Source: a virus (taxonomy: Duplodnaviria > Caudoviricetes). From it: a DNA stretch of 64,000 nucleotides. Positions 29,296 through 55,430 of this stretch are shown here, one piece after another (position 1 is the first letter of the stretch; the number at the start of each line of letters is the position of its first letter). The stretch lies in the IMG/VR virus record IMGVR_UViG_3300032285_001531. The stretch is one strand, 5' to 3'. A model generated the notes under the pieces. It was given only the letters and a program-made list of their open reading frames with translations. It was not told the DNA's origin and did not search any database. A program made the translations under genes and the position numbers.

Positions 29296-30070
29296 GGACA
29301 AATGGCCTGAACACAGTAAGAATTGGGGTAAGATAGGACCTCCCCTAAAACCCACGCCTGAAGTTATAAACAAATATGTAGAACTTGTGCCTAACGGTCG
29401 TGTTATGATGTTAGGTGTTACTCCTGAAATATACAATGCATTTGATAATATATTAGCAGTGGATCACAATCCAACTATGATAACTAATGTGTGGCTGGGT
29501 GATACCGATACTAAAAAAGTCATAGTTGATGATTGGATTACATACGAAACAACAGAGAAGTTTGATGGGATAGTAGGTGATGTAGCAGTGACATTAATGG
29601 GTGACAAACAAACTATAACTGACTTCAATAACAAAACATTCAACTGGTTAAACAGTAATGGTGTTATGGCTCAGCGTATATTTCACAGTACGATTACTGA
29701 ACTACCCTATGAATATCTAGTATTATTAACTACTAGTAAAGCCCCAATCAATTGGCATGCATACAAATGGTTGTTACATATCTATCTAGCAGTGTCTACT
29801 AAATCACAAAGAATACGTCAAAGTGATGTACGAGATTTATTCAATAAGATATGTCCTGATAGAAACATGCTAAGTCAAATCACAGAATGGGATATAGATG
29901 CAATCAATACCATTGACTTTTATGAAAATGCAACACAAGAAGTAACTGTATTATCTAAAGATGATTGGTTAGATACTATTCCTAAAAATGCTATCGATGT
30001 AGAATTCGTATATACTGAAGGATATGATATCTGCAATTTATTTCCTATATTAAAATATCGTCATGTTTGA
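29294..30070 (+). CDS. Class I SAM-methyltransferase-like protein
   Basis: RVMMLGVTPE, VDHNPTMI and DDW...FDGIVGD follow the Rossmann MTase pattern; TTG start. Confidence 0.5.
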   Translation: MDKWPEHSKNWGKIGPPLKPTPEVINKYVELVPNGRVMMLGVTPEIYNAFDNILAVDHNPTMITNVWLGDTDTKKVIVDDWITYETTEKFDGIVGDVAVTLMGDKQTITDFNNKTFNWLNSNGVMAQRIFHSTITELPYEYLVLLTTSKAPINWHAYKWLLHIYLAVSTKSQRIRQSDVRDLFNKICPDRNMLSQITEWDIDAINTIDFYENATQEVTVLSKDDWLDTIPKNAIDVEFVYTEGYDICNLFPILKYRHV

Positions 30071-31307
30071 GCAACTTTTAACAAGATTAGAAAAAACTCA
30101 ATGGTTGAGTGAACAAGAATTGCAGCAGATGCAATATAATGCACTGAATTCAATAGTAAAACATCATAGAGAACAAAGTCCGTGGTACAAAAAACTTACT
30201 GAGAATGCTGAATCAGTTCCTATTATCAATAAGCATGATATACAACAAGCAGGTCATGAGTTTTTTGCACAAAAAGTATCACAGGATAACTTACCAGCTA
30301 ACACAGTTAAAACTTCAGGTAGCACAGGTGAGCCACTAGAAGTAAGAGTAGGTATTGTCACTGGTAATTTTCACAGTGCATTTTCAGTAAGAAACTTAAT
30401 ATGGAACTTTAAAGAAGAAAACTTAAAATCATCTATCATTAAAGCAAACATAGACAAGTATCAAGAAATGCCTGATTGGGGAAGTCCTTATAATCTTATA
30501 TTAAAGACTGGACCAGTTCAAGGTATCTCTATTAGAACAGACATACCAGAACAGAATAGAATACTCACAGAATTTCAACCTAATATACTATTAACATTCC
30601 CTAATAATCTACGTGCATTATGTGAACTATGGCGTGAAACTGGAGTGCCACTGAAAGACTTGAAGTACATACGAACAATGGGCGAGACTTGTACTGCTAG
30701 TATTAAGAAACTAGTTAAAGAAGTAACTGGATTAAAAGTAATAGATGTTTATAGCAGTCAGGAGTTAGGTGCAATAGCATTAACCTGTCCTGATTCAGAC
30801 TTATATCATACTATGGATGAGAATCTTATCGTAGAAATACTAGACGAGAATGATAAACCATGTGCTGTAGGACAAGAAGGTAGAGTTGTAGTCACTGACT
30901 TACACAATCAACTAAGTCCTATGATACGTTATGATGTAGGTGACTTTGCAGTGCGTGGACCTAAGTGCAGTTGTGGTAGAGGTCTACAAACTATTCATTC
31001 AGTATTAGGTAGACGTAGAAATCTGTTAGTACATCCAGACGGTCGTAGACATTGGCCGTTAATTGGATTTCATGACTTTGGCACTATCGCTAAAGTACGT
31101 AGATTTCAAATGGTTCAGCATAATTTAGAAAATATAGAACTACTGTTGGCTACAGAAATTAAGTTGACAGACGAACAGAAAGATAAATTTATAGAACTAT
31201 TACAAAAGTATACAGGACACGAATTTAAGATTACAGTTACCAATGTGATCGGAGATTTATCTGTACCGGCAAACGGAAAATTTGAGGACTTTATAAGCAA
31301 ATTATGA
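30063..31307 (+). CDS. Phenylacetate-CoA ligase (PaaK)/F390 synthetase-like adenylate-forming enzyme
   Basis: KTSGSTGEP loop, DVYSSQELG, IRYDVGD, CSCGRGL, VLGRR. Confidence 0.88.
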   Translation: MFEQLLTRLEKTQWLSEQELQQMQYNALNSIVKHHREQSPWYKKLTENAESVPIINKHDIQQAGHEFFAQKVSQDNLPANTVKTSGSTGEPLEVRVGIVTGNFHSAFSVRNLIWNFKEENLKSSIIKANIDKYQEMPDWGSPYNLILKTGPVQGISIRTDIPEQNRILTEFQPNILLTFPNNLRALCELWRETGVPLKDLKYIRTMGETCTASIKKLVKEVTGLKVIDVYSSQELGAIALTCPDSDLYHTMDENLIVEILDENDKPCAVGQEGRVVVTDLHNQLSPMIRYDVGDFAVRGPKCSCGRGLQTIHSVLGRRRNLLVHPDGRRHWPLIGFHDFGTIAKVRRFQMVQHNLENIELLLATEIKLTDEQKDKFIELLQKYTGHEFKITVTNVIGDLSVPANGKFEDFISKL

Positions 31308-32029: not shown

Positions 32030-33109
32030 ATGAAAATAAACTCATTACTAGAATCTACAACATCAGGATCAGTAGCATCAGTCTCTACTCCTGTTGGAAA
32101 AATGCAAAAACGTGGAGGGTCTATGTTTAAGGGAAAAACTACTAACAAACCCTTTTACGAAGAAAAGAAGGACTGCGGCTGCCCTGCTGAATGCACATGC
32201 AGAAAAGTAGATGAAGCATTTGATACTACTAATCCAAAAGAATATCTCATTACTGTTCATCATCAAACACAAGATGGAGAGAGTGGTAAAGCTGAATATA
32301 AAATTACTAAGGCAAATGATGCCCGTCATGCTAAAAATATAGCAATGCTTAGGCATAGAAATGCGTTAGAAGTTAAAGGTATTAAATCCAAATCAATGCA
32401 TTGTAGTAGTCAAGATGTTAAAAATGTAGACGAAGGTGCAATGCCCCAATCAGTAATCAGAGCCAAAGAGAATATTCGTATGGCCAGCGATGAAGAAAAC
32501 AAGAAACGTTTTGCTGGTAAAACTAAAGAAGAATTAGCAAGCATGGCACGTAGACATGGTTATAAAGATAAAAATCCTTATGCTAAATTTCATGACGGTA
32601 AAACAGGAATCAATGAAGGTTCAATTAGTAACGCATTAGTTGCAGTAGAGGAAGCTAGACTAAGCGAAGAAGATTTAATTTTAATGCCAGGACAAGGTGT
32701 TAGATTCAAAAAAGAATTAATGCCAAAGAAAACAGACCATGAAATTGAAATGGCACGTGGTCAATTATATCAATCAGCAAAAAATGCAAAAGACATCTGT
32801 GGCATGCTAAAAGGTATCAGCGAAATACAAGGCATTGACGCATGGGTACAATCAAAAATTACCACAGCAGCAGACTACCTAGAAACAGTACGTGCATATT
32901 TAGAATCTAAGTATGAAATGCAACATGAAATTGATGAGGCTACCCCACGTGAAAAATTTAACAAGGGTTTGAAAAAAGCAGGATACGATCCACATAAAGG
33001 TGCAGATCGTTTGTTGGCATTACTTGCTAAACAAGCAGAAGAACGCAAGAAGTTTGAAAAAGAACTGCCTTTTGTTTATGGTGATAAAGACAAGGATGAA
33101 CAGAAATGA
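32030..33109 (+). CDS. Modular hypothetical protein, probable head-internal protein
   Basis: N-terminal MKINSLLE; short modules delimited by xxE motifs; helical DHEIEMARGQL...WVQSKIT.AADYL module. Confidence 0.7.
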   Translation: MKINSLLESTTSGSVASVSTPVGKMQKRGGSMFKGKTTNKPFYEEKKDCGCPAECTCRKVDEAFDTTNPKEYLITVHHQTQDGESGKAEYKITKANDARHAKNIAMLRHRNALEVKGIKSKSMHCSSQDVKNVDEGAMPQSVIRAKENIRMASDEENKKRFAGKTKEELASMARRHGYKDKNPYAKFHDGKTGINEGSISNALVAVEEARLSEEDLILMPGQGVRFKKELMPKKTDHEIEMARGQLYQSAKNAKDICGMLKGISEIQGIDAWVQSKITTAADYLETVRAYLESKYEMQHEIDEATPREKFNKGLKKAGYDPHKGADRLLALLAKQAEERKKFEKELPFVYGDKDKDEQK

Positions 33110-34371
33110 GAGCATTTGAATTTTTAATTGAGAACGAAGAAGCTGCATCAAATTTACCAGGTGCAGTTAATGGAGTTAAGATTATGACACCGCAACAATT
33201 TGTTGGTGACGAAGAAGAAGTGGATGAAGCTACTAAACTACCTGCACCACAAAAACAATTTGGTGGGCAAGAGTTTCAGGACTACATGCAACGTATTGTA
33301 GGTACGCCTGATATTGATAAAAAAACTGGTCAACCTAAAGTAGATAAAAAGGGCAAAGAAAAGTATGTGTCTGGTAAATTAAAAACAGACAAGTTTAAAA
33401 TGCCATATATCCATCGTAGCAGTGTTGTTGAATACTATGATGAAAAAGGTAAGAAATTCAATGAAGATGCAGTTATTAATGCATTGAAAGTGCGCAAAGA
33501 TTCATTGTTGAAACAAAATGAAAAAATGAAGCACAGTAATGGTGCATTAGAGCAGTTCTTCAATGTAGGCTTTGCAGCACTAACAGGTATCGCAGTAGAT
33601 GAAAGCACTGATAAGTTAATCATTGTTAATACTTGTCCAGGTGCCGGTGCATGTAAAGTAGATTGCTTTGCTATGAAGGGCGGTAAGATTCAATTTAAAG
33701 GTGGTTGGTTAAGTGATGGTCGTATTCTAACAGAATTACTAAATGACCCGCAGGGTTTCAGTAGTAGACTATCAAATGAGATTGCTAAAGAAGAAGCATT
33801 AGGTAAAAAAGGTGGCTATAGTGTTACAGTGCGTTGGCATGACGCAGGTGATTTCTTTAGTCCTGAATATTTGGACCTAGCATTAGATATTGCAAAGCGT
33901 TTCCCTAATGTTAAATTCTATGCTTATACTAAAATGGCTGGTGCAGCACTAGCAAATAAGCCAAGTAACTTTATCATCAACTGGTCAGAAGGCGCACATA
34001 CTTCACAAGAGAAACAAATCAAATCACAAGATCCACAGTTGACGCAGACTAAGAACAGTCGTATTGTTCCTGAGAAACTATTTTGGGACTTACTAAAGAA
34101 AGACGAGAAAGGCAACCTAGACAAAGAGGGTGCTAATGCTAAAGGTGAAGGTGGTCGTTGGGTAACAAGCGGACCAGAAGCAACACAAGAACTAAAACAA
34201 CGTTTAGCACAAGCATATGGTCTAAGTGCAAACAGTATTCTGTCATATGATGAGTACATCTCTAAAGGCAAAAACTCTCCTATGAAGTGGAACGTTATAG
34301 TTGCACCTGGTGAGGGTGATCTTAGCGCAAATGATCCAAACGTATTAAGTACATTATTATTGAGGCACTAA
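33106..34371 (+). CDS. GP88-like (radical-SAM-like) phage protein
   Basis: TCPGAGACKVDCFA (CX5CX3C), VRWHDAGDFFS, FYAYTK; N-terminal MRAFEFLIE. Confidence 0.75.
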   Translation: MRAFEFLIENEEAASNLPGAVNGVKIMTPQQFVGDEEEVDEATKLPAPQKQFGGQEFQDYMQRIVGTPDIDKKTGQPKVDKKGKEKYVSGKLKTDKFKMPYIHRSSVVEYYDEKGKKFNEDAVINALKVRKDSLLKQNEKMKHSNGALEQFFNVGFAALTGIAVDESTDKLIIVNTCPGAGACKVDCFAMKGGKIQFKGGWLSDGRILTELLNDPQGFSSRLSNEIAKEEALGKKGGYSVTVRWHDAGDFFSPEYLDLALDIAKRFPNVKFYAYTKMAGAALANKPSNFIINWSEGAHTSQEKQIKSQDPQLTQTKNSRIVPEKLFWDLLKKDEKGNLDKEGANAKGEGGRWVTSGPEATQELKQRLAQAYGLSANSILSYDEYISKGKNSPMKWNVIVAPGEGDLSANDPNVLSTLLLRH

Positions 34372-34372
34372 A

Positions 34373-34816
34373 ATGTTAGCAGATAGTTTAAAAGTAGTAT
34401 TAGCAAGTAGTTTCACTTTTTATTTAAAAGCACACAACTTTCATTGGAACGTTGAAGGTTCCAATTTCTCAGAATATCATAAATTTTTGGATGAGTTGCA
34501 AGCTGAAGTGTTTGAGAATGCGATTGACCGTAGCGCAGAATTTATTCGTGTACTTGACCATTATGCTCCAGGTAGCTTGACACGTTTTCATGAATTAAGT
34601 ATAATTGAAGATCAGGTAAAAGTACCACGTGCTGAGTTAATGATTGCTGAATTATACGAAGATAATGCCAAAATCATTGAGATGTTAAAGCAAGTGTTTA
34701 CAATAGCAGAAGAAGCTAACGAAGAAGGCATTGCCAATTTCATAGCAGAACGTATTGATGCACATGGTAAACATTCATGGATGCTACGTAGTTTTCTCAA
34801 AACAAATAGAGAATAA
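34373..34816 (+). CDS. dps: Dps/ferritin-like DNA protection protein
   Basis: FYLKAHNFHWNVEG..F...H, DRSAEFIR, K..WML.S. Confidence 0.93.
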   Translation: MLADSLKVVLASSFTFYLKAHNFHWNVEGSNFSEYHKFLDELQAEVFENAIDRSAEFIRVLDHYAPGSLTRFHELSIIEDQVKVPRAELMIAELYEDNAKIIEMLKQVFTIAEEANEEGIANFIAERIDAHGKHSWMLRSFLKTNRE

Positions 34817-34875
34817 TGGATCCAAACAACACACCAGACAATGATTTACCTGTAATACCTTATGGGGAACATTAA
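34816..34875 (+). CDS. Putative 19-aa microprotein MDPNNTPDNDLPVIPYGEH
   Basis: TAATG overlaps with both neighbouring genes. Confidence 0.55.
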   Translation: MDPNNTPDNDLPVIPYGEH

Positions 34876-35093
34876 TGGAAGAAATCACATCAGATAACAT
34901 CGATCAAATGAGGGAGAAGTTTAAGCCTAAGAAAAAGGCTAACATTATTCCAGAAGAATTGATGAGCAAATCTGCAAGTTATGATGACAAACTACTCTTA
35001 GCTAAACTTCTTTCCGAAAAAGAAAGTAAACGAGTAATCTTAGTTATAAAACAAATGCTTAAAGCAGATAGTAGTAAATCAGGGATCAAATAA
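34875..35093 (+). CDS. Hypothetical protein
   Basis: 72-aa ORF, coupled on both sides. Confidence 0.7.
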   Translation: MEEITSDNIDQMREKFKPKKKANIIPEELMSKSASYDDKLLLAKLLSEKESKRVILVIKQMLKADSSKSGIK

Positions 35094-35308
35094 TGGTTGC
35101 CGAAATGTTGATGTATGGCTTTGTTAGTGCCTTTGGATGGTGGGGAGCAAATCATTATATTATTGAACCACACCTTGAATCTAAACCTGTATTAATGGAA
35201 AAAGAAAAGCAAGAACAGAAATGCACTGACTGGGAAGAAAAAAAGAATCCAGACGGAACGATTAATAGATTTAGAACCTGCGAATCGTTATCAAAGACTT
35301 CACCTTAG
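35093..35308 (+). CDS. Small hypothetical membrane-anchored protein
   Basis: Hydrophobic N-terminus; C-terminal Cys pair. Confidence 0.7.
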   Translation: MVAEMLMYGFVSAFGWWGANHYIIEPHLESKPVLMEKEKQEQKCTDWEEKKNPDGTINRFRTCESLSKTSP

Positions 35309-35370
35309 GACCGTGAGGGCGCGGCTGCTGCGTTATCCAGAGGAGTCGTGCCCCGAGGGTAAAAGTGAGC
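35299..35370 (+). ncRNA. Candidate structured RNA in the desaturase leader
   Basis: GC-rich multi-stem element in an AT-rich genome; no family assigned. Confidence 0.45.
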
Positions 35371-35380
35371 CTAACTAATT

Positions 35381-36085
35381 ATGACAATACTACTTTATAC
35401 ACTAATCACTACACACATTACAATTCTATGTGTCACACTATTTTTACATCGTGGACAAGCACATAAAGGATTTGTATTTCATCCTACATTAAGTCACTTC
35501 ATGCGTTTTTGGCTATGGCTTACAACTGGGATGATTACAAAAGAATGGGTAGCAGTACATAGAAAACATCATCAACTTACTGACATACAAGGTGATCCAC
35601 ATAGCCCACATGTATATGGTATACAGAAAGTAATGATTGAAGGTGCATTATTATATCATGAAGCAGCAAAAGACGAGAACATGGTAAAGCATTATGGAGT
35701 AGGAACTCCTGATGACTGGGTAGAACAAAACGTATATACTAAACATAGTAAGTTAGGAATCAGTTTACTATTAGTATTAGACATGCTATTCTTTGGGTAT
35801 TGGGGAGTAGTAGTTTGGGGAATACAAATGATATGGATACCCTTCTGGGCTGCAGGAGTTATTAATGGCTTAGGACATTGGTATGGATATCGCAATACTG
35901 ACACTAAAGACTTCTCTACAAACATCACAAAAATAGGTATTGTTGTGGGTGGAGAAGAACTACACAACAATCATCACGCTGAACCCGCAAATCCAAAATT
36001 CAGCAGAAAATCCAATGAATTTGATATCGGTTGGCTATATTTTCGCATATTTTCTCTTTTAGGTCTTGCTACGCTACGAGACTAA
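35381..36085 (+). CDS. Delta-9-type membrane fatty-acid desaturase
   Basis: His boxes HRGQAH, HRKHH and HNNHH; DPHSP; FDIGW. Confidence 0.93.
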   Translation: MTILLYTLITTHITILCVTLFLHRGQAHKGFVFHPTLSHFMRFWLWLTTGMITKEWVAVHRKHHQLTDIQGDPHSPHVYGIQKVMIEGALLYHEAAKDENMVKHYGVGTPDDWVEQNVYTKHSKLGISLLLVLDMLFFGYWGVVVWGIQMIWIPFWAAGVINGLGHWYGYRNTDTKDFSTNITKIGIVVGGEELHNNHHAEPANPKFSRKSNEFDIGWLYFRIFSLLGLATLRD

Positions 36086-36088
36086 AAC

Positions 36089-36096
36089 GATAAATA
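36089..36096 (+). promoter_or_regulatory. Late-promoter-like GATAAATA
   Basis: 5 nt before ATG 36102; heads the 36102-42689 run. Confidence 0.7.
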
Positions 36097-36101
36097 TATG
36101 A

Positions 36102-36986
36102 ATGAGAATTACCGATTTTAAAATACACGATACCGAAAAACTAGACCATATACTAGTAAAACTCTGCCAAATGGTTATTAATGGCCAAAAGCAGGATAGT
36201 GACTATTTTGGTATGGTTGCTGCTTGTGTCCTAGACACCCATAATGAAGAAGTCTGTGCCCTAAACTATGTAGTAAAAGACGGCAAACATGTACATGCAG
36301 AACGAGCAGCAATAGACAAATATCACAAACAATATGGTGATATTCCAGCTGGTAGCATTATCATTACAACTTGCAGTCCATGCAGTGAAATGATGACTGA
36401 GCGTTACGGAGATTCTTGTACTAACTTAATAGAAGAAGTTGGTGTACATAAAGTATATTGCGGATACGAAGATCCTACACAAGATAGCAGTGAAAATTAT
36501 GTTCATAAAACATTCCATGTAAAACAAACCCGCAATGAAAAGATTATAGAACTATGCAAATCGTTTGCGGACACTTTCTTAGAAAAAGAAAAGATTGCTG
36601 AAACTAAACATATTATGGAAGAAATTAGAAAAGTCAATGCAGATGAGTTAACTCCAAAGTTTGTTGCATGGGCTAGTAAAATACTAAAATTAGAAACTAC
36701 ACCAGAAATAGAATTAAGCTACGATACAGAAGAAGCGCAAGACGGACATCATACTGGTCGTCATACTGAAGGTGATAACAAAGTTTGGGTATATGCTAAG
36801 AACAGAAACTTAGTTGACATATATCGTACAATATTCCATGAATTAGTTCACGTAAGACAAGGTGAATTAAACATGATTAAGCCCGGTGATAGTTATCCCG
36901 GCAGTCCAATAGAACAACAAGCTGATGTACTTGCAGGTAAGTATATCAAAGTATTTGGAGCAGAACATCCGGAGATTTTTCAATGA
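36102..36986 (+). CDS. Zn-dependent deaminase domain fused to a zincin (HExxH) domain
   Basis: HAERAAI, TCSPC...C and VYCGYEDP; C-terminal IFHELVHVRQ...E.QAD. Confidence 0.8.
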   Translation: MRITDFKIHDTEKLDHILVKLCQMVINGQKQDSDYFGMVAACVLDTHNEEVCALNYVVKDGKHVHAERAAIDKYHKQYGDIPAGSIIITTCSPCSEMMTERYGDSCTNLIEEVGVHKVYCGYEDPTQDSSENYVHKTFHVKQTRNEKIIELCKSFADTFLEKEKIAETKHIMEEIRKVNADELTPKFVAWASKILKLETTPEIELSYDTEEAQDGHHTGRHTEGDNKVWVYAKNRNLVDIYRTIFHELVHVRQGELNMIKPGDSYPGSPIEQQADVLAGKYIKVFGAEHPEIFQ

Positions 36987-39061
36987 AGATTAAAAACGTT
37001 ATAAGCGAAGATTTACCCCCACCAGAAAATGCACGTAAGACACAGATTGCTGGCACATTACCTACATACAAGAAGGCAGCTGCCATGCTTGATAAGACAG
37101 GTGTAAAGGGCAAGGCATTAGACTTTGGTGCAGGATTAGGTTTAGGCACAGGTGAGTTAGGAAAAGATGCAGAAAGCTATGAGCCTTATCCAGGCGAAAA
37201 GTTCAAGCCACACTTTGTCGATGTAACACAGATACCAGATAATGCATATCATAAGATTGTAAACTTAAATGTATTGAATGTTGTTCCAAATGCAGGTGAT
37301 CAAAGAATACGTGATGCCATTGTTAAGAACATTGGTCGTGTACTAGCACCAGGTGGTGTAGCAATTATTACTACACGTGGTAAAGATGTATTAACTATCA
37401 AAGGTACTCCTGGCGAAGAGCCAATGAGCATGATTAGTAAGATAGGTACATATCAAAAAGGCTTCTCGCAAACTGAACTAAAACAATATGTTCAAAGTGT
37501 ATTAGGTGACGGCTTTGATGTATCTAGTGTTAAGTTAGGCCCAGCTGGTGTAATGATTAAGAAACATGACCAGTATAACGAAGAATGGAGTGCCAAATAC
37601 AAGCGTAGTATTAATTGTAGTCATCCAAAAGGATTTAGTCAAAAAGCACATTGTGCTGGTAAGAAGAAGCACAATGAAAGTGTTGAGATGGAAATGGTAT
37701 GTGAAGATTGCGGCATGTGCCAAACACACGGAGATAATACAAAAGATAAATTAGATGAGTTGAAATGCTGGTCTGGATATCATAGAGTTGCCGGTACCAA
37801 AGCAGGCTTTCCGGGTAGTTGTGCAAAAAATAAAACTAACGAGGAACAAGATATGTCAGAAGGTCGTGAACAATGTCCTGAATGCGGTGGTGCAATGTAT
37901 TCAGAAGAAATGATTAATGAAAAGAAAGATGCTTGCTACTATAAAGTAAAAAGCCGTTACAAAGTATGGCCAAGTGCCTATGCTAGTGGTGCATTAGTTA
38001 AGTGCCGTAAAAAGGGTGCAAGTAATTGGGGTAATAGTACTAATGAAGATATCGTTTCAGAATATGTAGACCAATTAGATGAGAATTTACATCAGTGGTT
38101 TAAAGAAAAATGGGTACGATTTGGTCCAGATGGTAAGATACGTGGTGATTGTGCTAGAGGTGATGACAGTGAGGGTAAGCCAAAATGTTTACCACAGAGT
38201 AAAGCACACAATTTAGGTAAAAAAGGTCGTGCAAGTGCAGCATCAAGAAAGCGCAGAGAAGATCCTAATCCAGAGCGTACTGGTCCAGCAATCAATGTTA
38301 ACACTAAGAAAAAATCAAATGAAGGTATGGCAGAAGCAACCGGAGACAAGCCATTTGATAATATGATGAAGGGCATTGTTAAAGGTACTACAAAACAAGC
38401 TACTGCTGATCGTAAAGAAAAAGAAAAACAAAGTCAAGAAAGAGCAAGAGCCGCATTTGGAAATATGTTTGGCGGTGGTAATCCTGCAGACAAACTAAGT
38501 ATCAGAAAAAAAACTGACGAAGGCAACGATTTTAACAGAATGATGAATAAGATTAGTTCTTCAGAATCATTGCACACTAGAGAAGCATTAGAACTAATGT
38601 CTGAACTTATGCATCAAGCAGGTGCATCATACAAAGAAGCACTACAGCAAGCAAGTTTAAGTTTTGAAATTGAACCTTCTAAATTACATAAGTTATATCA
38701 GCAAGAAATCACTAGTCTAGAAGAAGGTGAGACATGGGCAAAGCATAACAACCCACGTGCTGGTGGCATGAGTAAGAAATCAGTAAACAGTTATCGCCGT
38801 AGCCATCCTGGCAGTAAAATACAAACAGCAGTTACTACTAAGCCAAGTAAGTTAAAGAAAGGTAGTAAAGCAGCTAAACGCCGTAAGAGTTTCTGCGCTA
38901 GAATGCGTGGCATGAAGAAACATCGTACTGGTGCAAAGACAGCGAGAGATCCAAATAGCAACATCAATAAGTCATTACGTAGATGGCATTGCGAAAGCAT
39001 TGAACAAATGCAAGAGTTGGTAATGTTAGCCGAACAGTTTATTGCAAAACATAAAAAATGA
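36983..39061 (+). CDS. Class I SAM methyltransferase fused to a chain of short basic Cys/His modules
   Basis: ALDFGAGLG, VNLNVLNVVP and TYQKGF; then the modules INCSHPKGFSQKAHC, KKDACYYKVKSRYKVWPSAYAS, WFKEKWV...KPKCLP and RRKSFCARM. Confidence 0.8.
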   Translation: MKIKNVISEDLPPPENARKTQIAGTLPTYKKAAAMLDKTGVKGKALDFGAGLGLGTGELGKDAESYEPYPGEKFKPHFVDVTQIPDNAYHKIVNLNVLNVVPNAGDQRIRDAIVKNIGRVLAPGGVAIITTRGKDVLTIKGTPGEEPMSMISKIGTYQKGFSQTELKQYVQSVLGDGFDVSSVKLGPAGVMIKKHDQYNEEWSAKYKRSINCSHPKGFSQKAHCAGKKKHNESVEMEMVCEDCGMCQTHGDNTKDKLDELKCWSGYHRVAGTKAGFPGSCAKNKTNEEQDMSEGREQCPECGGAMYSEEMINEKKDACYYKVKSRYKVWPSAYASGALVKCRKKGASNWGNSTNEDIVSEYVDQLDENLHQWFKEKWVRFGPDGKIRGDCARGDDSEGKPKCLPQSKAHNLGKKGRASAASRKRREDPNPERTGPAINVNTKKKSNEGMAEATGDKPFDNMMKGIVKGTTKQATADRKEKEKQSQERARAAFGNMFGGGNPADKLSIRKKTDEGNDFNRMMNKISSSESLHTREALELMSELMHQAGASYKEALQQASLSFEIEPSKLHKLYQQEITSLEEGETWAKHNNPRAGGMSKKSVNSYRRSHPGSKIQTAVTTKPSKLKKGSKAAKRRKSFCARMRGMKKHRTGAKTARDPNSNINKSLRRWHCESIEQMQELVMLAEQFIAKHKK

Positions 39062-39969
39062 GAGCAATAGAGTTTTTAGTAGAGTATGATCGTGCTAAGA
39101 CGATGATGAACTTAGGTAATATCCTACATCAAAAAATGTTGAAGGATCGTACTGTACAACGTATATTCGGTGATGACCCTGTAGAGATAATCGATCCGGC
39201 TGTGATAATTGAATTTGCATTAGATAGATTTCAAGAGGCAGATCCTAGTCCTAACAAACAATATGTTCAATGGATAGCAAGAACCTATGCTAAAGATCCT
39301 AACTTCAAATTTGAAGATGTATTAAGTACTGTTCATCCATACTTAGAAAAGTTTTATAAACTAATCAAACGTAAAAAGATTCCTAGTCCACAAAACGATA
39401 TAAACAAGTATTCTGATTTTAAAGTTTTTATGGGAGTACTGGATCAATTTCCTGATCCAGACGGTGAAGCAATACAAAAAGATAAAGGTCATGCTTTCAC
39501 ACTATACGAAGATGATAAGTGGAGAGTTATAGTACCACAAGATGAACCAGCAGCATGTTATTATGGTCAAGGCTCACGTTGGTGTACTAGTGCAACCAAA
39601 GCTAGAAACATGTTTAGCTATTATAATAATATATCTCCATTGCTTATTGCGATTCCAAAAGATCCATTTCATCCAGGTGAGAAGTATCAATTACACTTTG
39701 GTATATCAATTGATGATTACCCAATGAAAAGTGATAGTGATATAGAAGATTATATTAATCAAAATGATGACATGTCTGATTCAGGACTTGATGAAGTACT
39801 TGAGTATGGTCAAATAATGGATGAGCATGATGATCCAATGTCATTCTATGATATGACACGTAGATTGGGTGGTAGTTGGGATGGAATTATTGACGCATAC
39901 ATTGCTAAATTCCCAGATCGTAAATGGCAATTACTTATGAATTTAGAACAAGTTGAAGGTCGTGATTAA
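39058..39969 (+). CDS. PcfJ-like (WCT-motif) protein
   Basis: AACYYGQGSRWCTSA motif with a downstream KYQLHF; N-terminal MRAIEFLVE. Confidence 0.65.
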   Translation: MRAIEFLVEYDRAKTMMNLGNILHQKMLKDRTVQRIFGDDPVEIIDPAVIIEFALDRFQEADPSPNKQYVQWIARTYAKDPNFKFEDVLSTVHPYLEKFYKLIKRKKIPSPQNDINKYSDFKVFMGVLDQFPDPDGEAIQKDKGHAFTLYEDDKWRVIVPQDEPAACYYGQGSRWCTSATKARNMFSYYNNISPLLIAIPKDPFHPGEKYQLHFGISIDDYPMKSDSDIEDYINQNDDMSDSGLDEVLEYGQIMDEHDDPMSFYDMTRRLGGSWDGIIDAYIAKFPDRKWQLLMNLEQVEGRD

Positions 39970-42689
39970 TGAGAGCAACTGAGTTCATCACAGAAGCATT
40001 TGATAAGCCCTATGCATATAACTGGCAGCGTGGTGATCATGGTGATTACGATATACTAGTTAAATTACCAGACGGTTCACCACTAAACATTTCATTCAAT
40101 CACGAAGGTGATGACGTATGGCATGTTGCATTTGATCGTGGGCATAGTCAAGAAATCACTGGTGAAGGTGATGCACAAAGAATATTTGCCACAGTATTAC
40201 ACAGCATTAAACAATTCATTGGTAAACAACATCCAGAGAAGTTATATTTCTCTGCAAGCAAACAAGTTGAACCAGGGCAACGCAGCGAGAGCAGAGCGAA
40301 TTTATATAGTAGAATGATCAAGCGTTATGCTAGTTCTATGGGATATGACTCTGTTACTGATGACTTTGGTAGAGATAGTGTAACGTATATACTAAACAAA
40401 AAGCAAGGTGTGACAGAAGATACCGAAAACAGCATGTCTACTGAAGATATGATTGCTTATCTAAGACAACACCATGATAGTAATCTTCATCAGGACTACA
40501 TAAATCACTTAAACACATTCAGTAAGTTTGTACTACGAGATATTCCAGTGAACACAATTAAAACAGAGTTACCTGGCCTAGATAAAGCAAAAGTAGAACA
40601 ATATAAAAAAATGGATTTCAGCAAGGCACCTCCTATTGTAATGGGAAATGGTCATATCTTAGATGGTTATCACAGAACAACAGTAGCAAAAGCATTAGGT
40701 ATTCCTACTATCAAAGGTTATGTTGGTATTAAACATCAAGGTGTGGCGGAAGGCTCGGAAAACAATGGAATTAGTTTCAAGGTACAAAAAGGTAAAAACA
40801 AATTTGCAACTACTTTAAGTGTTGGTGTCAACCCAGTAGGAGTATACCAATATGATGCTGATACAGGTCGTAGTGTGGCCGAGGTTTATCCAGAATTCAA
40901 AGGCAAAGGATTAGGTAAATTATTAGTTTTACATGCTATCTATACCGCGGCCAAATTGGGATTAGATTTCCAAGAAGATGAATCAAGAACTTCAGAGTAT
41001 GATAATGTATTAGATAGTTTGAGTAGCAACGGTTATATTGTAGATGACGATGGTTATTGGTATGTTACCGGCGAAGGTGAACAATATCTACAACAAGCAT
41101 TAAAGCAAGATGTGGCGGAAGGCTCATTAAACGAAATTTACAAAATGCCGCCTACTAAAGATAGTAGTCAAGGAATGGCAATTTGGGCTTACAATGATGC
41201 AGTAGAAAAAAAGTCGCCTGTGTTTTATAGAGATAACAATGTAATAATTTTCAAATTCAATGAATATTTACTGCGATATATCATATTGCAAGATGGAAAC
41301 CCTGTGTTATATATCGGGTTAAGTAGATTCCTTGATGGATATAAATCCGGTACTGTTGCTACTGAAATAGAAGGGCGCGGCAAGGGTCTGGCACAAAAAG
41401 CATATTTGAATGCCAGTGATATTTTAGGTGTACCAATATATAGTGATACCACACAAACTGATGCAAGTAGGTTGGGTATATGGGATAAACTGATTCAACA
41501 ATATCCAGATAGAATTGTTGGGTACGATCAAAAAACTAACAAGGATTTACCTTTGTCAATGTCTGATAAAGGACCAATAGTGAATCAAAACCAACCAATA
41601 TATGTTAACAATAAAGATACTAATAAACCAATAGCACCAAATCAACGATATAGAACAAGAATTTTAAAACTACTACCTATCAAGCAAGGTGTGGCAGAAG
41701 GCAGAGAAAATTATAATGGTATAAATTTGTTACTTCAGCGAGATGATGATGAAGTTTTTGTTAAAGCCTCAGCAGGTGGTAGAGAATTAGGTCATGTATT
41801 GTTTGTAGATGAAGGTGACTACTTAATGCCACAAGACCTAGAAGTTGATGAACGTTTTCAAGGTCAAGGTATTGCTCAAACAATGTATGACTATGTTAAA
41901 AGCAAAGGATATAAGATACGCCGTAGTGGTCAGCAAACTGCTGCAGGTGCAGGCTTCTGGGACAAACATCGCCCTGAACAGAATGTTTGGGAAGGTACAG
42001 CAGACGATATTAACAAAATGTTTAACAACATGTATGATCCGTTGACAACAAATTTACAACGTGTAGCATTGATGGCTATGCAGGGTAGACAAGATGAAGC
42101 GGGAATGCAGTTGAATCGTGTAATCAAAGATGCAAGTCCAGAAGCACAAAAGAAAATTATTGATGCTGTAAACAATATCAAACCAGTAACAATCAATGGC
42201 AAAGTAGCAGACAGTTCAACATTAGATAAAAGTCATACACATCAAGACTGGATCTTAAACACATTTATTCCTTGGGTAAAGAAAACTATTGGTCATCAAG
42301 ATGTTACTGAAGATGCAACACCTACAATGGGTATCAATGTAAGAAGTGACGGTGATATTGACTATGCTAGTTTAATCATTGATGGCAAGAAAAAATATGA
42401 ATCTCGTCAGACTGATAGTCTTAGACCATATGTTGGTAAAACAGTTGCAATTGTTAGAACTGGTAAAGGTCCTGCAGTTGCAATTGGTCAAGTAACAGTA
42501 GGTGACCCAATTGTAGTAGATGCAGAAAAGTTTGACAAAATGCGCAAACAACATTTAGTACCACAAGGCAGCAAGTTTGATATAGGTATCGATGCTACCA
42601 AATATCTATATCCAATGATTAATCCAGTTCGTTGGGATAATGAAAAACTAGTAAAACAAAAAGGTATTGTTGCTAGAAAGATTGATTAA
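39969..42689 (+). CDS. Modular polyprotein: GNAT-like domains, ParB/Srx-like domain, ASCH domain
   Basis: PPIVM....LDGYHR; V.PEFKGKGLG, E.RGKGLAQ and VDERFQGQGIAQ.MY (GNAT motif A); YASLIIDGKKKYESR (ASCH). Confidence 0.8.
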   Translation: MRATEFITEAFDKPYAYNWQRGDHGDYDILVKLPDGSPLNISFNHEGDDVWHVAFDRGHSQEITGEGDAQRIFATVLHSIKQFIGKQHPEKLYFSASKQVEPGQRSESRANLYSRMIKRYASSMGYDSVTDDFGRDSVTYILNKKQGVTEDTENSMSTEDMIAYLRQHHDSNLHQDYINHLNTFSKFVLRDIPVNTIKTELPGLDKAKVEQYKKMDFSKAPPIVMGNGHILDGYHRTTVAKALGIPTIKGYVGIKHQGVAEGSENNGISFKVQKGKNKFATTLSVGVNPVGVYQYDADTGRSVAEVYPEFKGKGLGKLLVLHAIYTAAKLGLDFQEDESRTSEYDNVLDSLSSNGYIVDDDGYWYVTGEGEQYLQQALKQDVAEGSLNEIYKMPPTKDSSQGMAIWAYNDAVEKKSPVFYRDNNVIIFKFNEYLLRYIILQDGNPVLYIGLSRFLDGYKSGTVATEIEGRGKGLAQKAYLNASDILGVPIYSDTTQTDASRLGIWDKLIQQYPDRIVGYDQKTNKDLPLSMSDKGPIVNQNQPIYVNNKDTNKPIAPNQRYRTRILKLLPIKQGVAEGRENYNGINLLLQRDDDEVFVKASAGGRELGHVLFVDEGDYLMPQDLEVDERFQGQGIAQTMYDYVKSKGYKIRRSGQQTAAGAGFWDKHRPEQNVWEGTADDINKMFNNMYDPLTTNLQRVALMAMQGRQDEAGMQLNRVIKDASPEAQKKIIDAVNNIKPVTINGKVADSSTLDKSHTHQDWILNTFIPWVKKTIGHQDVTEDATPTMGINVRSDGDIDYASLIIDGKKKYESRQTDSLRPYVGKTVAIVRTGKGPAVAIGQVTVGDPIVVDAEKFDKMRKQHLVPQGSKFDIGIDATKYLYPMINPVRWDNEKLVKQKGIVARKID
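40404..42314 (+). repeat. Dispersed 15-18 nt linker repeat encoding Q-[GD]-V-[AT]-E-[GD]
   Basis: Copies at 40404, 40737, 41106, 41685 and 42297, plus degenerate QNVWEG at 41979. Three copies match CAAGRTGTGGCRGAAGGC. Confidence 0.9.
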
Positions 42690-42736: not shown

Positions 42737-43348
42737 ATGAACAAGATTGGCAATTTTGAATCCATTGGTTGTGATTGTGAGTTTGGATTGGTTCAACGAA
42801 CCTTGAATTACGAACCTATGACTTTATTAAGATGGTCTAGTATAAATTTACACAGTTTAGTTAGAATGATTGACGATGATTTTAAAGATTTAAAAAATAT
42901 TGATACATATGATATTGATAGAAATGACGATTTAGAATACATGGTTACTAATACAAGTTATCATCTTTGGTCACATACTGACACACGACATGACACTTCC
43001 AAATCTGAATTAATAGAATCATCCTTCAAACGAATAAATTATTTGCAACGTCAATTTGTAAAGGAAGCAAAAAATAATAAAAAAATATATGTTCACAAAT
43101 CTAAAAGTATTACTACTGAAGAAATGCAATTATTATATAATGCAATGAAATCATTAGGTGCTGATAGAATTTTATTTGTACTAAAAGACATTGACCTAAA
43201 AAATACGTTTGTTGAATCAGAATTTGGTTTGATTGCTTACATATCTGATTTTTATCCAAACACAAAGTTTGATGAATGGGAATCTATTCTTGATTATGCA
43301 CTTGAGTACTTTAATGAAAATAACATATCCCATAATAAATCAGTCTAA
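42737..43348 (+). CDS. DUF1796-like putative papain-like peptidase/hypothetical protein
   Basis: N-terminal FESIGCDCEFG and RRI..L-like SFKRINYL pattern. Confidence 0.5.
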   Translation: MNKIGNFESIGCDCEFGLVQRTLNYEPMTLLRWSSINLHSLVRMIDDDFKDLKNIDTYDIDRNDDLEYMVTNTSYHLWSHTDTRHDTSKSELIESSFKRINYLQRQFVKEAKNNKKIYVHKSKSITTEEMQLLYNAMKSLGADRILFVLKDIDLKNTFVESEFGLIAYISDFYPNTKFDEWESILDYALEYFNENNISHNKSV

Positions 43349-44462
43349 CGAATTTAGAAAAACAGTTATAGAACAACTTTACTATTTGTCCGAACATATT
43401 AATTCTTTACAAATTGAAAATGATATGTTAATAATTAGTATAGATGATCCTTTATGTGTTGATGAAGCTGAAATTATAACATCGGTAAAAAGAATAATAG
43501 AAACTACGGAAAAAAGTTTTAGAGCCTTTAAAGAAACAATTTCATATGAATCGGAAAACAAATCTACTTACAACTTAGATCCTAATATATGGTTAATTGA
43601 AAACGGTGATTTATTAACACATAGTAATGGAACATATGTTTATACTGGTACTTTAGCAAAAGTTATTACTGGATTAGATAATTTCTTACAAAAATTATGT
43701 ATTAAGTTTGGAGCAGTTGAATATATATTTCCAACTACTATGCCGTTTGACTCATTAAACAACTCAGGATACATAAAATCTTTCCCACAACATGTAGGAT
43801 TTATTTCATATGGTCAAAAAGGATACGATGGTTTTACAAAATTAGTAACTGCTTTAGATGATAATCAAGTTGAAAAATACTTAGGAGACGTTAAATTAAT
43901 ACTAGCACCTACTGTTTGCCATCATTTATTTCAAACTATTAAACTTTCTAAATCTACTAAGAAATTGATTGTTACCGGAAGTTCAAAATGTCATAGAAAT
44001 GAAGATAAAACTGCATATGGAATTGAAAGATTAAACAGTTTCAACATGCGTGAAATAATTTTTATTGATGAACCCGATATAGTATCAAATAAACTAACAG
44101 AGTTTTCAAATATATTAAATGATATTTTTACTAAATGGAATATTTATTTTATAAAAATGAATGCTACTGACCCGTTCTTTGCAGGGGAAATGTCAAATAA
44201 AAAAATATATCAATCTATGCTAGATTTAAAAAACGAGTACAAATTTCATTTACCTTATAGTAATAAATGGCTTGCTACAACTTCTATAAATTATCATAGA
44301 GATAATATACTATATGGATTTGATATTAATACTGATAAGTTGCATTCAGGTTGTATAGCATTTGGATTAGAAAGAATTGCATTAAGTTTATTCTCTCAGT
44401 TTGGTACTAATACTAAAGAATGGCCTACAAATTTAACAGAAGATTTGGGGATTAACCTATGA
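43314..44462 (+). CDS. Amino acid:[carrier protein] ligase (class II SerRS-like)
   Basis: GYIKSFPQH, LAPTVCHH (Zn ligand Cys), CHRNE (motif 2), FNMREIIF, ATDPFF, HSGCIAFGLER (motif 3). Start moved to ATG 43314. Confidence 0.85.
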   Translation: MKITYPIINQSNEFRKTVIEQLYYLSEHINSLQIENDMLIISIDDPLCVDEAEIITSVKRIIETTEKSFRAFKETISYESENKSTYNLDPNIWLIENGDLLTHSNGTYVYTGTLAKVITGLDNFLQKLCIKFGAVEYIFPTTMPFDSLNNSGYIKSFPQHVGFISYGQKGYDGFTKLVTALDDNQVEKYLGDVKLILAPTVCHHLFQTIKLSKSTKKLIVTGSSKCHRNEDKTAYGIERLNSFNMREIIFIDEPDIVSNKLTEFSNILNDIFTKWNIYFIKMNATDPFFAGEMSNKKIYQSMLDLKNEYKFHLPYSNKWLATTSINYHRDNILYGFDINTDKLHSGCIAFGLERIALSLFSQFGTNTKEWPTNLTEDLGINL

Positions 44463-44710
44463 TAGAAGATATTGTAAAATCAGTAATAGAAAAATATGCA
44501 AAAAAACCTATTACCAAAACAGAAAATTTTATTGAAGAAACTGATATTGATTCTTTATCATTAATAAACGTGTTAATGGATTTAGAAGAAGAACTTAACA
44601 TTGAATTTGATTTATCTGTTATGGTCATAGAAGATGTCAGTACCCTAGAAGATATGGTAAATTACGTTACAAAATTAAAGAATCAAGCGTTGCAAATCAG
44701 CAAAAATTAA
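44459..44710 (+). CDS. Acyl/aminoacyl carrier protein
   Basis: DIDSLSLINVLMDLEEELNIEF (phosphopantetheine Ser in DSL); small and acidic. Confidence 0.88.
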   Translation: MIEDIVKSVIEKYAKKPITKTENFIEETDIDSLSLINVLMDLEEELNIEFDLSVMVIEDVSTLEDMVNYVTKLKNQALQISKN

Positions 44711-48513: not shown

Positions 48514-48899
48514 TAAAAGGCATTATGCAATCAGGTAAGTATTTGCATGTATCAGGGGGATATCCTTCTGCACCAAATATTAATTCTACGCAAAATAGAC
48601 AAACATCTAATTCACCATCTTCAGGTGACGTTCGTTATAACGCAACTGTAGCGGGATTAGAGATATATGATGGTTATAATTGGGTGTCATGGAATCCTTC
48701 ATATGCCAGTGTTGGGTTATCGCCTGAAGCAGAAGAACTACTTGACTGGGCCAAAGAAAAGCGCAACAAAGAACTTGAAGTAGAAAAACTAGCAAAAGTT
48801 AATCCAGCAGTTCATGATTTACTTGAGCAGATTAAAGAAAAGCAAGATCAACTTGAAATGGTAACAACATTACTAAAATCACCAGAGACAACATCTTAA
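48510..48899 (+). CDS. Hypothetical protein
   Basis: 129-aa ORF; GDVRYN...LEIYDG..W motif plus a helical C-terminus. Confidence 0.7.
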   Translation: MIKGIMQSGKYLHVSGGYPSAPNINSTQNRQTSNSPSSGDVRYNATVAGLEIYDGYNWVSWNPSYASVGLSPEAEELLDWAKEKRNKELEVEKLAKVNPAVHDLLEQIKEKQDQLEMVTTLLKSPETTS

Positions 48900-50473
48900 T
48901 GGAAAAAGACGATTTAACAAGTAAACAAAATCCTGATTGGGCATTGTTTTTACCTGCACTTAGTACATTCTATATTACTGGGTTAGGTAAACAGCGTAAA
49001 GGTGAAGAGTACTTTCCACCTGAACGTATACCAAAAGGTATTCCTGACTTAGAAGGATTGAATTTTCTTAATAGTCAAAAGGCATTATTCCCATACAAGT
49101 GGGCATTGTATTCTGCAGGTCATTCTGAATTAGATCCTAAGAAACAGGGCAATAGTGAAAGCATTGTACACGAACGTGAAAAAGGTACATTCATGTTAGG
49201 TGATTCAGGTGGATTTCAAATCTTAAAAGGTCAATGGCCTGCTGATTGGAAAGATCCTAATTGTCCTAAAGCAAAAAAGAAACGTGAACAGGTACTTGCA
49301 TGGATGGAAACATACATGGACTATGGCATGGTACTTGATATACCTTCACAATCATTGACTACATATCATTTACAAGATCCGAAAACACTTAAGAAAGATG
49401 AAAAGGGTAATATTATACCTGGCTCAGGTGTTTCACTGCATGGTATTAAAACTATTGAAGATGCTATTAAAGCTACACATATCAATAACAAATATTTTAT
49501 TGAGAATCGTATTGGTAAATGTAAGTTCTTAAATGTATTACAAGGTCGTAATCATACTCAAGCTGCTGAATGGTATAATGAGATGAAAGACTATTGTGAT
49601 CCTAAAAAGTATCCTGATAATCATTTTAATGGTTGGGCTATGGGAGGTCAAACTAAGATTGACATTAGCCTTTTTCTTAAATCATTAGTTAATATCATAC
49701 ATGATGACTTGTTACAAGAAGGTGTACATGATTGGATACACTGTTTAGGCACTAGTATATTAGAATGGGCATTGATATTCAGTGATGTACAACGAGCATT
49801 ACGCAAACATGCTAATCCAAAAGTAACTATTAGTTTTGACTGTGCAAGCCCATTCTTTAGTGCTGCTAAAGGCTTAGCATACTTTAACAATAATTTTGAA
49901 CACAATAAGAAGTGGTCTTATCAAATGGAAAAGACTGCTGAGAAAAAAGCATATGCTACTGATACCCGCAAATATAGAGATGGTGTATTAGCTGATGGCA
50001 TACATGAGATATTTGCCGACAGTCCTGTGACTGCAAATATGACAATGCAAGACTTATGTTATCGTGGTCAAGGCTTTCTTGGTCAACATGGTAAAGAAAC
50101 TAAAACAAGCTGGGATACATTAAGCTATACGTTATTGCAAGGTCATAATGTATATCAACATATGGTTGCTGTGCAAGAAGCTAATCGCAAATATGATACT
50201 AATATTATCCCAAGCATGTTGATACATGAAAAACATGAGCGTATACTGTTCAGTAACGTAGTAGAAGAAATCTTTAGTTTAAAAGATAGGCAAAAAAGTT
50301 TAGATAAAATTGAAGAATATAATTGGTTTTGGAATCAGTTTAAGAGTGGTAGTCAAGGTATGAGTGGTAGAAAAACTACTAATTCAGATACTATATATGG
50401 TGAATTTTTTACAGTAGCAGACGCACCACAAGTTATTGAAGTTCCTGAAGAAGAACCGGAAGATTTTAGATAA
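48899..50473 (+). CDS. dpdA: DpdA, TGT-family 7-deazaguanine DNA transglycosylase
   Basis: MLGDSGGFQ, VLDIP, NVLQG, GWAMGG, IHCLG and SFDCASP (TGT barrel motifs); next to folE/queD/queE. Confidence 0.85.
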   Translation: MEKDDLTSKQNPDWALFLPALSTFYITGLGKQRKGEEYFPPERIPKGIPDLEGLNFLNSQKALFPYKWALYSAGHSELDPKKQGNSESIVHEREKGTFMLGDSGGFQILKGQWPADWKDPNCPKAKKKREQVLAWMETYMDYGMVLDIPSQSLTTYHLQDPKTLKKDEKGNIIPGSGVSLHGIKTIEDAIKATHINNKYFIENRIGKCKFLNVLQGRNHTQAAEWYNEMKDYCDPKKYPDNHFNGWAMGGQTKIDISLFLKSLVNIIHDDLLQEGVHDWIHCLGTSILEWALIFSDVQRALRKHANPKVTISFDCASPFFSAAKGLAYFNNNFEHNKKWSYQMEKTAEKKAYATDTRKYRDGVLADGIHEIFADSPVTANMTMQDLCYRGQGFLGQHGKETKTSWDTLSYTLLQGHNVYQHMVAVQEANRKYDTNIIPSMLIHEKHERILFSNVVEEIFSLKDRQKSLDKIEEYNWFWNQFKSGSQGMSGRKTTNSDTIYGEFFTVADAPQVIEVPEEEPEDFR

Positions 50474-50484
50474 CAGAGGATATT

Positions 50485-50691
50485 ATGTACGAAGGTAAAA
50501 TCAAACAGTTAGAAGAAGCACATAAAGTGTTGAACAAACAAATAGATGATATGGAACGTAATCACCCACATGTTGAGGTAGATAAACTATCTGAAATGAA
50601 GAAGCGTAAATTAATGTTACGTGATGAGATAAGTCGCCTAAATAAATTACAATGGGAACATGACCACGACAGTGTGGACTTAGGAGAATAA
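50485..50691 (+). CDS. DUF465/YdcH-like small coiled-coil protein
   Basis: L.E.H..L.KQI........LKK.KL.LRDEI pattern. Confidence 0.7.
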   Translation: MYEGKIKQLEEAHKVLNKQIDDMERNHPHVEVDKLSEMKKRKLMLRDEISRLNKLQWEHDHDSVDLGE

Positions 50692-50692
50692 T

Positions 50693-51145
50693 ATGGATCA
50701 AAGAGAAATGGCATTAGCTGAAACTAGAATTAGAATCAAACAAACTGCTAAACGTATGATATTTGTTACCTTTCAAAAAGAAGGTATTCATAGATATCCT
50801 GCAGCAGCAACAGATCCTAACTTATGTACAGCAGGTGAATATGACGTATCGTTTCTTGCTAATCCACATCGTCATATATTTCATTTCAATGTTAATATTG
50901 AAGTGTTTCACAATGACCGTGATATAGAATTTATTCAATTCAAGCGTTGGCTAGAAGGTCTTTATAGCAAAGACATACTTGAATTGGATTTTAAAAGCTG
51001 CGAAATGATTAGCGATGACTTATATGAACAAATCGCTAGTCGTTACCCAGATCGTGACATTGAAATCACTGTAAGCGAAGATGGTGAGAACGGTGCAACG
51101 ATACATTATAGTACTACTAAACCACATTTATCAATAACACTTTAA
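50693..51145 (+). CDS. dpdL: QueD-paralog T-fold protein, DpdL-like (CDG decarboxylase)
   Basis: LANPHRHIF matches LxxxHRHxF (50855-50881); DRDIEFI and SCEMISDDL are T-fold motifs. Confidence 0.7.
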   Translation: MDQREMALAETRIRIKQTAKRMIFVTFQKEGIHRYPAAATDPNLCTAGEYDVSFLANPHRHIFHFNVNIEVFHNDRDIEFIQFKRWLEGLYSKDILELDFKSCEMISDDLYEQIASRYPDRDIEITVSEDGENGATIHYSTTKPHLSITL

Positions 51146-51154
51146 GGAAACAAA

Positions 51155-51358
51155 ATGGCAAAACTAGAAATCAAACCTAATCATAAAGTTCGTGCAATCT
51201 TTGACGATTTAGAAAAGTATCGCAACTTCTGCGTTGACTTTGGTTACAAGTTTGATGAGGCGCATTTGTATGATATGCGTGTATTCTCATACCGTCAACA
51301 TGCTAAACAATTAGCAGGTAAGAATCCAAAGGATCAATGGGCAGAGGATATGAGATAA
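51155..51358 (+). CDS. Hypothetical protein
   Basis: 67-aa ORF with an AAGGA SD. Confidence 0.75.
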   Translation: MAKLEIKPNHKVRAIFDDLEKYRNFCVDFGYKFDEAHLYDMRVFSYRQHAKQLAGKNPKDQWAEDMR

Positions 51359-52943: not shown

Positions 52944-53161
52944 TGACTGCTATATTTACATATCTTTTTATAGGTGGAGTGTTAGGATTTCTAATAGGAT
53001 TGAACAAGCACCAAACACCTACTGGTCTTATTAACTATAATATTTTAAAAAACGAACGAGATGAATCTGAGAGAAAACTTTTGTATTACAAAAAGGTAAT
53101 CAAAGACCTAGTAGAAGATAATCGTAAGCTAGTAAAAGAATTAGAAGAACATAATAAATGA
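52943..53161 (+). CDS. Small membrane-anchored coiled-coil protein
   Basis: N-terminal TM helix; coupled to both neighbours. Confidence 0.7.
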   Translation: MTAIFTYLFIGGVLGFLIGLNKHQTPTGLINYNILKNERDESERKLLYYKKVIKDLVEDNRKLVKELEEHNK

Positions 53162-54141: not shown

Positions 54142-54142
54142 A

Positions 54143-55426: not shown

Positions 55427-55430
55427 AAAT

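Follow-up and report, generated by a model that had tools for sequence, protein, structure and literature searches.

The Locus and Its Features

The window, that is, the whole 64,000-nt stretch of viral DNA analyzed here (IMG/VR record IMGVR_UViG_3300032285_001531), comes from a jumbo phage of the T4-like kind; phages Phosso and Atu_ph07 have the DNA polymerases nearest to its own, and its DsbA-like gene (89 aa) has matches in Phosso and in the PA5oct group. Between a short open reading frame (ORF) and a fatty-acid desaturase gene lies an element, which a first-pass annotation described as GC-rich and multi-stem, and the description holds: the element forms an island of 60% GC in surroundings of ∼35% GC, and folding of the 72-nt stretch beats that of its shuffles (z −2.9). 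All letters given in that annotation are present at their positions. The features of the locus are the following (positions in the window).

34577–34605, + strand: perfect sigma70-type promoter consensus (12/12) inside a Dps-like gene, 728 nt upstream of the element
35093–35308, + strand: upstream ORF of 71 aa with no PHROG hit, whose stop codon is the UAG of loop L1
35298–35371, + strand: whole RNA element, comprising the P1 domain, the P2 hairpin, the interrupted P3 hairpin, and a conserved 3′ tail (covariance model R1, 74 bits)
35298–35318, + strand: P1, 35298–35303 with 35313–35318, closing loop L1 (covariation with the near partner)
35302–35314, + strand: 13-nt exact reverse complement of 23S rRNA helix 69–71 (1922–1934 in NZ_CP047662.1; I-CeuI site), from the match to the fetched rRNA
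35319–35333, + strand: P2 hairpin, 35319–35322 with 35330–35333, and its 7-nt loop GGCUGCU (L2; covariation)
35320–35330, + strand: 11-nt exact reverse complement of 16S rRNA helix 18 (519–529; 530 loop and pseudoknot strand), from the match to the fetched rRNA
35334–35361, + strand: P3 (35334–35338 with 35357–35361) and P3b (35342–35343 with 35352–35353; covariation)
35344–35351, + strand: loop L3, of class T1 in this copy (loop classification of the family)
35362–35371, + strand: conserved single-stranded tail (family alignment)
35381–36085, + strand: fatty-acid desaturase gene, a neighbor and no fixed partner

No second copy is detected by covariance model R1 within the window. Loop L1 could form a 2-bp CC-UUA-GG mini-hairpin, the pairs of which are invariant or changed on one side only in the family alignment, and in long forms of the element an extra hairpin (P1b) is inserted in L1. 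The family of the 71-aa ORF is found upstream of the element in 32 members, and a desaturase homolog from another locus matches Pfam PF00487.

Other gene groups of the window were named by inspection. An apparent 7-deazaguanine DNA-modification cluster occupies 48899–57660 (DpdA-like at 48899, FolE-like at 54211, QueD-like at 55495, and QueE-like at 56791), and homologs of genes of this pathway are common to PA5oct and the motif-positive genomes. A seryl-tRNA-synthetase-like gene (396 aa) adjoins an acyl-carrier-like gene (83 aa) at 43272–44710, a pair that resembles amino acid:carrier protein ligase systems, and an acyl-CoA-ligase-like gene lies at 30063–31307. Late genes with similar N-termini (MRAxEF-like) stand behind ATAAATA promoter-like sites at 32030–42689, and in relatives the element is usually located within a shuffling late-gene cluster of such MRAxEF-like genes.

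Distribution of the Element

The element is one copy of a small RNA structure common to hundreds of giant phages and represents a real, uncatalogued, and widespread RNA motif of jumbo phages. Four pattern scans of viral contigs recover at least 265 viral loci, with 218 unique elements among the matches listed, and a metagenome scan adds at least 70 further unique elements. A covariance model built from 39 short members finds one match in each of 80 sources. The element is usually present in single copy in jumbo-phage genomes of 300–355 kb: each of five such genomes contains one copy, one of the five having also a second, 5′-truncated copy, and a covariance-model search of five jumbo genomes (1.76 Mb in total) returns only four matches, one of them in PA5oct. 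The second copy (L512:1501–1575, corresponding to 76942–77016 of G002) is without the L1 block and lies directly after a stop codon, ∼540 nt before a DsbA-like gene.

Among cultured phages, Pseudomonas phage PA5oct carries a homolog (MK797984.1:115466–115561, E = 3.6e-5), a copy outside the first training set of the covariance model, and the PA5oct element is 98–100% identical across 11 records including Paride and MIJ3. It is not one of the four ncRNAs annotated in PA5oct by RNA-seq (PMC7318152). Five PA5oct ORFs are common only to motif-positive genomes (Phosso being compared in part), and none is consistently adjacent to the element. A convincing copy was not found in the cultured jumbo phages Phosso, Atu_ph07, XaC1, Vibrio 2.275.O, CBB, BF, Yen9-04, SCTP-2, and SHEFM2K. 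Among cellular sequences, GTDB gives 0 true motifs in the 120 matches listed; the order to which a Burkholderiaceae MAG belongs gives 0 copies in the 151 genomes searched, and five other genomes likewise give 0. In the window, Rfam 15 yields no match at gathering score, and relaxing the E-value limit to 10 brings up nothing credible, which fits the first-pass statement that the RNA belongs to a family that could not be named. No description of the element was found in the papers searched, a set outside which the 10,006-motif phage catalogue stands (PMC10690425). Three further loci (L451, L477, and L490) contain a different conserved, GC-richer stretch with TTAGGACC and a GTGAGCA end, which falls outside the P2 family and is possibly another motif or a distant variant.

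Fold, Covariation, and Folded Strand

The homologs carry strong covariation. The inner variable pairs of P2, the GCGC/GCGT hairpin of the first-pass annotation, are formed in 167/167, 165/167, and 162/167 unique members against shuffle means of 102, 89, and 122, and the TATCC/GGGTA helix (P3) has a mean length of 4.86 bp against 3.35 bp with swapped partners, with covariation at every pair of P3 and P3b. The annotation had named a lack of homologs with covarying stems as evidence that would speak against a structured RNA, and homologs in which P2 and P3 covary are now available. Its closing stem between TTCAC and the far GTGAG in the tail is not borne out, since the mean helix (3.73 bp) hardly differs from that of the swap control (3.69 bp) and there is no covariation; TTCAC covaries instead with the near GTGAGG at 35313–35318 (5.05 bp vs. 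3.97 bp in the swap control, maximum 4.17). The family fold thus consists of three consecutive domains followed by a tail. Six loci (L236, L249, L277, L291, L305, and L311) form an expanded subtype: its 5′ domain holds an additional hairpin or two, and its GGCGU and ACGCC (L3) blocks are complementary to each other, mirroring two 23S strands that pair.

Pairing between the loops (CGG/YCG and GCU/AGC) is also possible, and internal tertiary structure could for this reason explain part of the loop invariance. The kissing contact proposed between CGGCT and AGTCG is indeed complementary in the window copy, but the region shows no covariation, and a C-to-A change in CGG occurs without compensation. 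Because L3 falls into four classes (class T1, with the AGTCG loop, in 67/218 members) and is absent in 6/218, this contact is at most auxiliary. The AGC of the tail is able to pair with the GCU of the P2 loop, and this L2–tail pseudoknot, like a GG/YC loop contact, is complementary in nearly all members with covariation in neither; the pseudoknot is possible and, its pairing bases being invariant, unproven. Such contacts would suit a self-contained tertiary fold (an orphan ribozyme, an aptamer, or a protein-binding RNA), for which the rRNA complementarity described below would be chance or the relic of a captured inverted piece of rDNA. The size and the invariant loops match the usual profile of such RNAs (PMC5737381), and GGCGU could pair with the ACGCC of L3 in the inserted subtype; none of the internal contacts covaries, however, and such a fold predicts neither exact rRNA matches of 11–17 nt nor variant loops that land on neighboring rRNA strands, which makes this explanation unlikely.

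The + strand, antisense to rRNA, is the folded strand, because G-U pairs outnumber A-C pairs (101 vs. 0 in P2; overall 59 vs. 18) and a one-way terminator follows the element in PA5oct. This bears on the idea that the opposite strand mimics rRNA and so lures away a host nuclease or a ribosome factor, or that the DNA itself is a decoy site for a homing endonuclease. The minus strand does spell helix 69–71 and helix 18 words, long forms would give a helix 69-like hairpin, and the target of L1 overlaps the I-CeuI site (PMC2790883). The pair bias, the orientation of the genes, and the promoter and terminator of PA5oct all indicate the + strand, and the site is split and permuted, so that no usable DNA target remains; a mimic or decoy is very improbable.

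Complementarity to Ribosomal RNA

The conserved loops of the element are antisense to functional segments of both ribosomal subunits. All positions refer to record NZ_CP047662.1, and we take standard 23S numbering in domain IV to be ∼3 lower. When a long member is compared by BLAST with 5,426 E. coli genomes, the best matches are all 23S rRNA (24/25 nt). Exact antisense matches of at least 8 nt occur near 23S position 1920 in 216/218 members and near 16S position 516 in 215/218, counts that concern members retrieved with the same blocks, each block being left free in one scan; in the scan that left L2 free, 144 of ∼150 true members keep the L2 block. The sequence of L1 is antisense to 23S 1923–1933 in these 216 members, with matches of 13 nt in the window copy and up to 17 nt elsewhere, and L2 is antisense to 16S 517–529 in the 215 members, with 11 nt in the window copy. 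Beside the loop, P2 has either G-C or C-G and no other pair, and the 16S match is at least 10 nt with both. Of the long forms, 80/129 retain GTTA, which complements helix 69 on its 5′ side.

Variant loops also find rRNA partners. The commonest L3 class (127 members) complements 23S 1932–1940, contiguous with the L1 target, and another class complements 23S 1969–1981; similarly, a 9-mer inserted in four members complements 23S 1828–1836, the partner strand of the 1969–1981 region. The altered L2 of PA5oct complements 16S 499–506, the other strand of the helix 18 pseudoknot. Two parts of the window copy are weaker in this respect: its T1-class L3 is without a convincing rRNA target, the match being only 7 nt and at chance level, and the tail AGUGAGC (35364–35370) is complementary to 23S 1100–1106 (helix 44) over 7 nt. 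The targets of L1, L2, and the main L3 class are present in E. coli, a betaproteobacterium, and a Bacteroidota genome.

Letter-shuffle probabilities, which are post hoc and derive from related members, are 0.0012 for L1 and 0.019 for L2 at any rRNA site, 0.002 (T2) and 0.0014–0.004 (T3) for an L3 landing within ∼60 nt of the L1 target, 0.001 (local) for the inserted 9-mer of four members at 23S 1828–1836, 0.012 (local) for the PA5oct loop at 16S 499–506, and 0.18 for the 7-nt match of the tail. Because the members are related, the switches of loop class count as few events and not as hundreds. As a control, 9-mers from the variable stems match rRNA in 0 and 1 of 218 members. The 23S complementarity is very probably under selection, and the same is probable, with less assurance, for the 16S complementarity. 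A small ribozyme, which the first-pass annotation had offered as one reading, appears less likely because the conserved loop bases are otherwise explained, by complementarity to rRNA; the 3′ terminators also speak against self-cleavage, and similar candidate motifs failed cleavage tests (PMC5737381; 10/10 in PMC10085705).

Genomic Context

The genes around the 218 members fall into 74 clusters upstream and 59 downstream, the commonest downstream gene being DsbA-like (67 members), and no linked protein domain was found. The first-pass annotation placed the element as a cis-regulator before the desaturase, and in the window two observations suit a riboswitch or leader controlling that gene: the tail ends 10 nt before the desaturase ATG, and the copy has an alternative nested fold that is ∼9 kcal/mol more stable (−31.7 vs. 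−22.4 kcal/mol, ViennaRNA). Across the family, however, only 12/218 members have a desaturase downstream and 9 have one upstream, the next gene is cut off from the element by a promoter or terminator in 112/218, the alternative fold prevails in members of class T1 only, and the PA5oct copy sits before an intrinsic terminator. The members do not occupy a consistent 5′ UTR of a coherent gene set, and the context largely refutes desaturase control, which is scarcely credible as an explanation of the family. The annotation was right that the desaturase has no clear Shine–Dalgarno sequence, which is uninformative, since 19 of the 37 window genes also have none in a simple scan.

Transcription signals are variable around the element. 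Downstream of it, an early promoter is present in 77 members, a late promoter in 32, and a terminator in 3–4 of 218 besides PA5oct. The order in PA5oct is a promoter-like site, a 98-aa gene, the element, and the intrinsic terminator, and the element is therefore in a 3′ UTR. In the window, the promoter consensus at 34577–34605 may drive a transcript through the element; upstream of other members, a conserved internal promoter was not found (4/146 vs. 5 on the other strand). A second perfect 12/12 sigma70 consensus starts at 6656 (+).

A stop codon precedes the element. The upstream stop falls within −16 to +4 of L1 in 171/212 members, and the upstream frame ends at the UAG of L1 in 46/201, with only six frames extending past it, though UAG accounts for only 3–7% of stops in motif-bearing genomes. 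Readthrough of the stop codon was rejected, as the frame beyond it is open for at least 40 codons in only 11/182 members. A cis-acting tether could be read from this position: the element, on the mRNA after the stop, would catch split subunits through rRNA pairing and promote recycling or reinitiation, like a TURBS element placed after the stop. The gene start within 30 nt downstream, with no promoter found, in 79/218 members is consistent with it. The single copy per genome behind 74 unrelated gene clusters argues against it, as does the terminator (PA5oct) or new promoter (about half of the members) that comes next and leaves nothing to reinitiate on, and tight gene packing alone places any element beside a stop; cis tethering is accordingly judged quite unlikely.

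Proposed Role of the Element

The explanation that we prefer, with a probability of roughly 0.55, is that the element is a 3′-UTR-derived, loop-presenting antisense RNA acting in trans, with the host rRNA of free or immature subunits as its pairing partner. The RNA module would arise within an ordinary phage transcript, either at its 3′ end or as an internal stretch, and its short covarying stems would hold up two to four loops, each complementary to a conserved functional rRNA segment: L1 to 23S helix 69–71, L2 to the 530 pseudoknot of 16S helix 18, L3, where present, to the adjacent strands of 23S helix 71 or helix 67, and the tail possibly to helix 44. Helix 69–71 is the subunit bridge at which release and recycling factors work. 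A point against the proposal is that the helix 69–71 and helix 18 targets are paired or buried once the 70S ribosome is mature. The loops may start pairing with free or immature ribosomal subunits, and this pairing could change subunit joining, maturation, or storage in favor of the phage. The RNA might be released from the phage transcript or ride on it, and the single copy per genome with its interchangeable neighbors makes action in trans probable. Simple inhibition of ribosomes makes little sense, as the phage needs them. What the analysis shows is the family, its fold and strand, the site after a stop codon, and the complementarity; that the element is expressed, freed from the transcript, bound to rRNA, and of any consequence for translation is inferred.

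In a bolder form, put forward tentatively, a clade of jumbo phages might encode an anti-ribosome RNA of modular build that engages both subunits simultaneously, through the 16S helix 18 pseudoknot and 23S helix 67–71, so holding or remodeling free, immature, or stored subunits. We are aware of no phage RNA that works by pairing to rRNA, and the phage tools for translation takeover known to us are proteins, tRNAs, or cis signals on mRNA. If the antisense reading is true, phages would possess an 80-nt RNA effector that targets rRNA itself, at helix 69–71 and helix 18; this would be a new way of taking over the host and would offer a natural tool for studying how ribosomes are assembled and recycled. 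Even without rRNA binding, the element remains a widespread, uncatalogued RNA motif. With the PA5oct/Paride copy, this metagenomic motif becomes accessible at the bench; Paride can replicate in deep-dormant cells (PMC10761892), and a link between that ability and the element is speculation.

Comparison With Known Systems

Several known RNAs resemble the element in part, and in its proposed way of working TURBS and the plasmid antisense RNAs come nearest. The words CUUAG after a stem and an AAAG tail after a hairpin are superficially shared with the preQ1-II and preQ1-III riboswitches, and the phages with the element carry preQ0-pathway genes. These riboswitches (RF01054 and RF02680; PMC11625349) are characterized by their place in the queT 5′ UTR and by U-A-U triples in an HLout pseudoknot, which the element does not have, and they were rejected as it contains no U-rich strand for such triples, is not upstream of queT, and has no Rfam match. 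Small self-cleaving ribozymes (pistol, twister, HDV-like, and hammerhead; PMC6765202) are similar in size, in their intergenic site near phage genes, and in their invariant loops; the known classes were rejected, since no catalytic core is recognized and no Rfam match exists. Theta ribozymes adjoin tRNA, whereas no tRNA lies near the element in any of the 218 loci. The resemblances to preQ1-II/III, pistol, twister, and SRP Alu are unsupported. The orphan motifs drum, skipping-rope, DUF3800-I, and FuFi-1, some with 3′ terminators (PMC5737381), are likewise conserved compact RNAs outside 5′ UTRs, sometimes terminator-ended, with no assigned function. The phage element differs from them in having no Rfam match and no protein domain found to be linked with it, and in its rRNA-complementary loops.

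In eukaryotic viruses, the TURBS motif pairs with 18S rRNA. The TURBS elements of caliciviruses and influenza B (PMC6393290, PMC3035654, PMC11921876), like the phage element, are structured viral RNAs beside a stop codon that present a short rRNA-complementary motif, and they lie upstream of a stop-start site with one small-subunit target and a fixed downstream ORF. The phage element shares the display of an rRNA-complementary motif by structure; unlike TURBS, it stands after the stop codon and not upstream of an overlapping stop-start with a dependent ORF, has targets on both subunits, and has no fixed downstream gene.

Loop-presenting antisense RNAs include CopA/CopT of plasmid R1 and RNA I/RNA II of ColE1. 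These plasmid RNAs are encoded in cis, with full complementarity to a single plasmid RNA, whereas the phage element is trans-encoded and directs separate blocks against rRNA. In both, stems expose loops that could initiate pairing with a structured target, and the exposed conserved sequence complementary to a target RNA that marks base-pairing antisense and 3′-UTR-derived small RNAs is present in the phage element.
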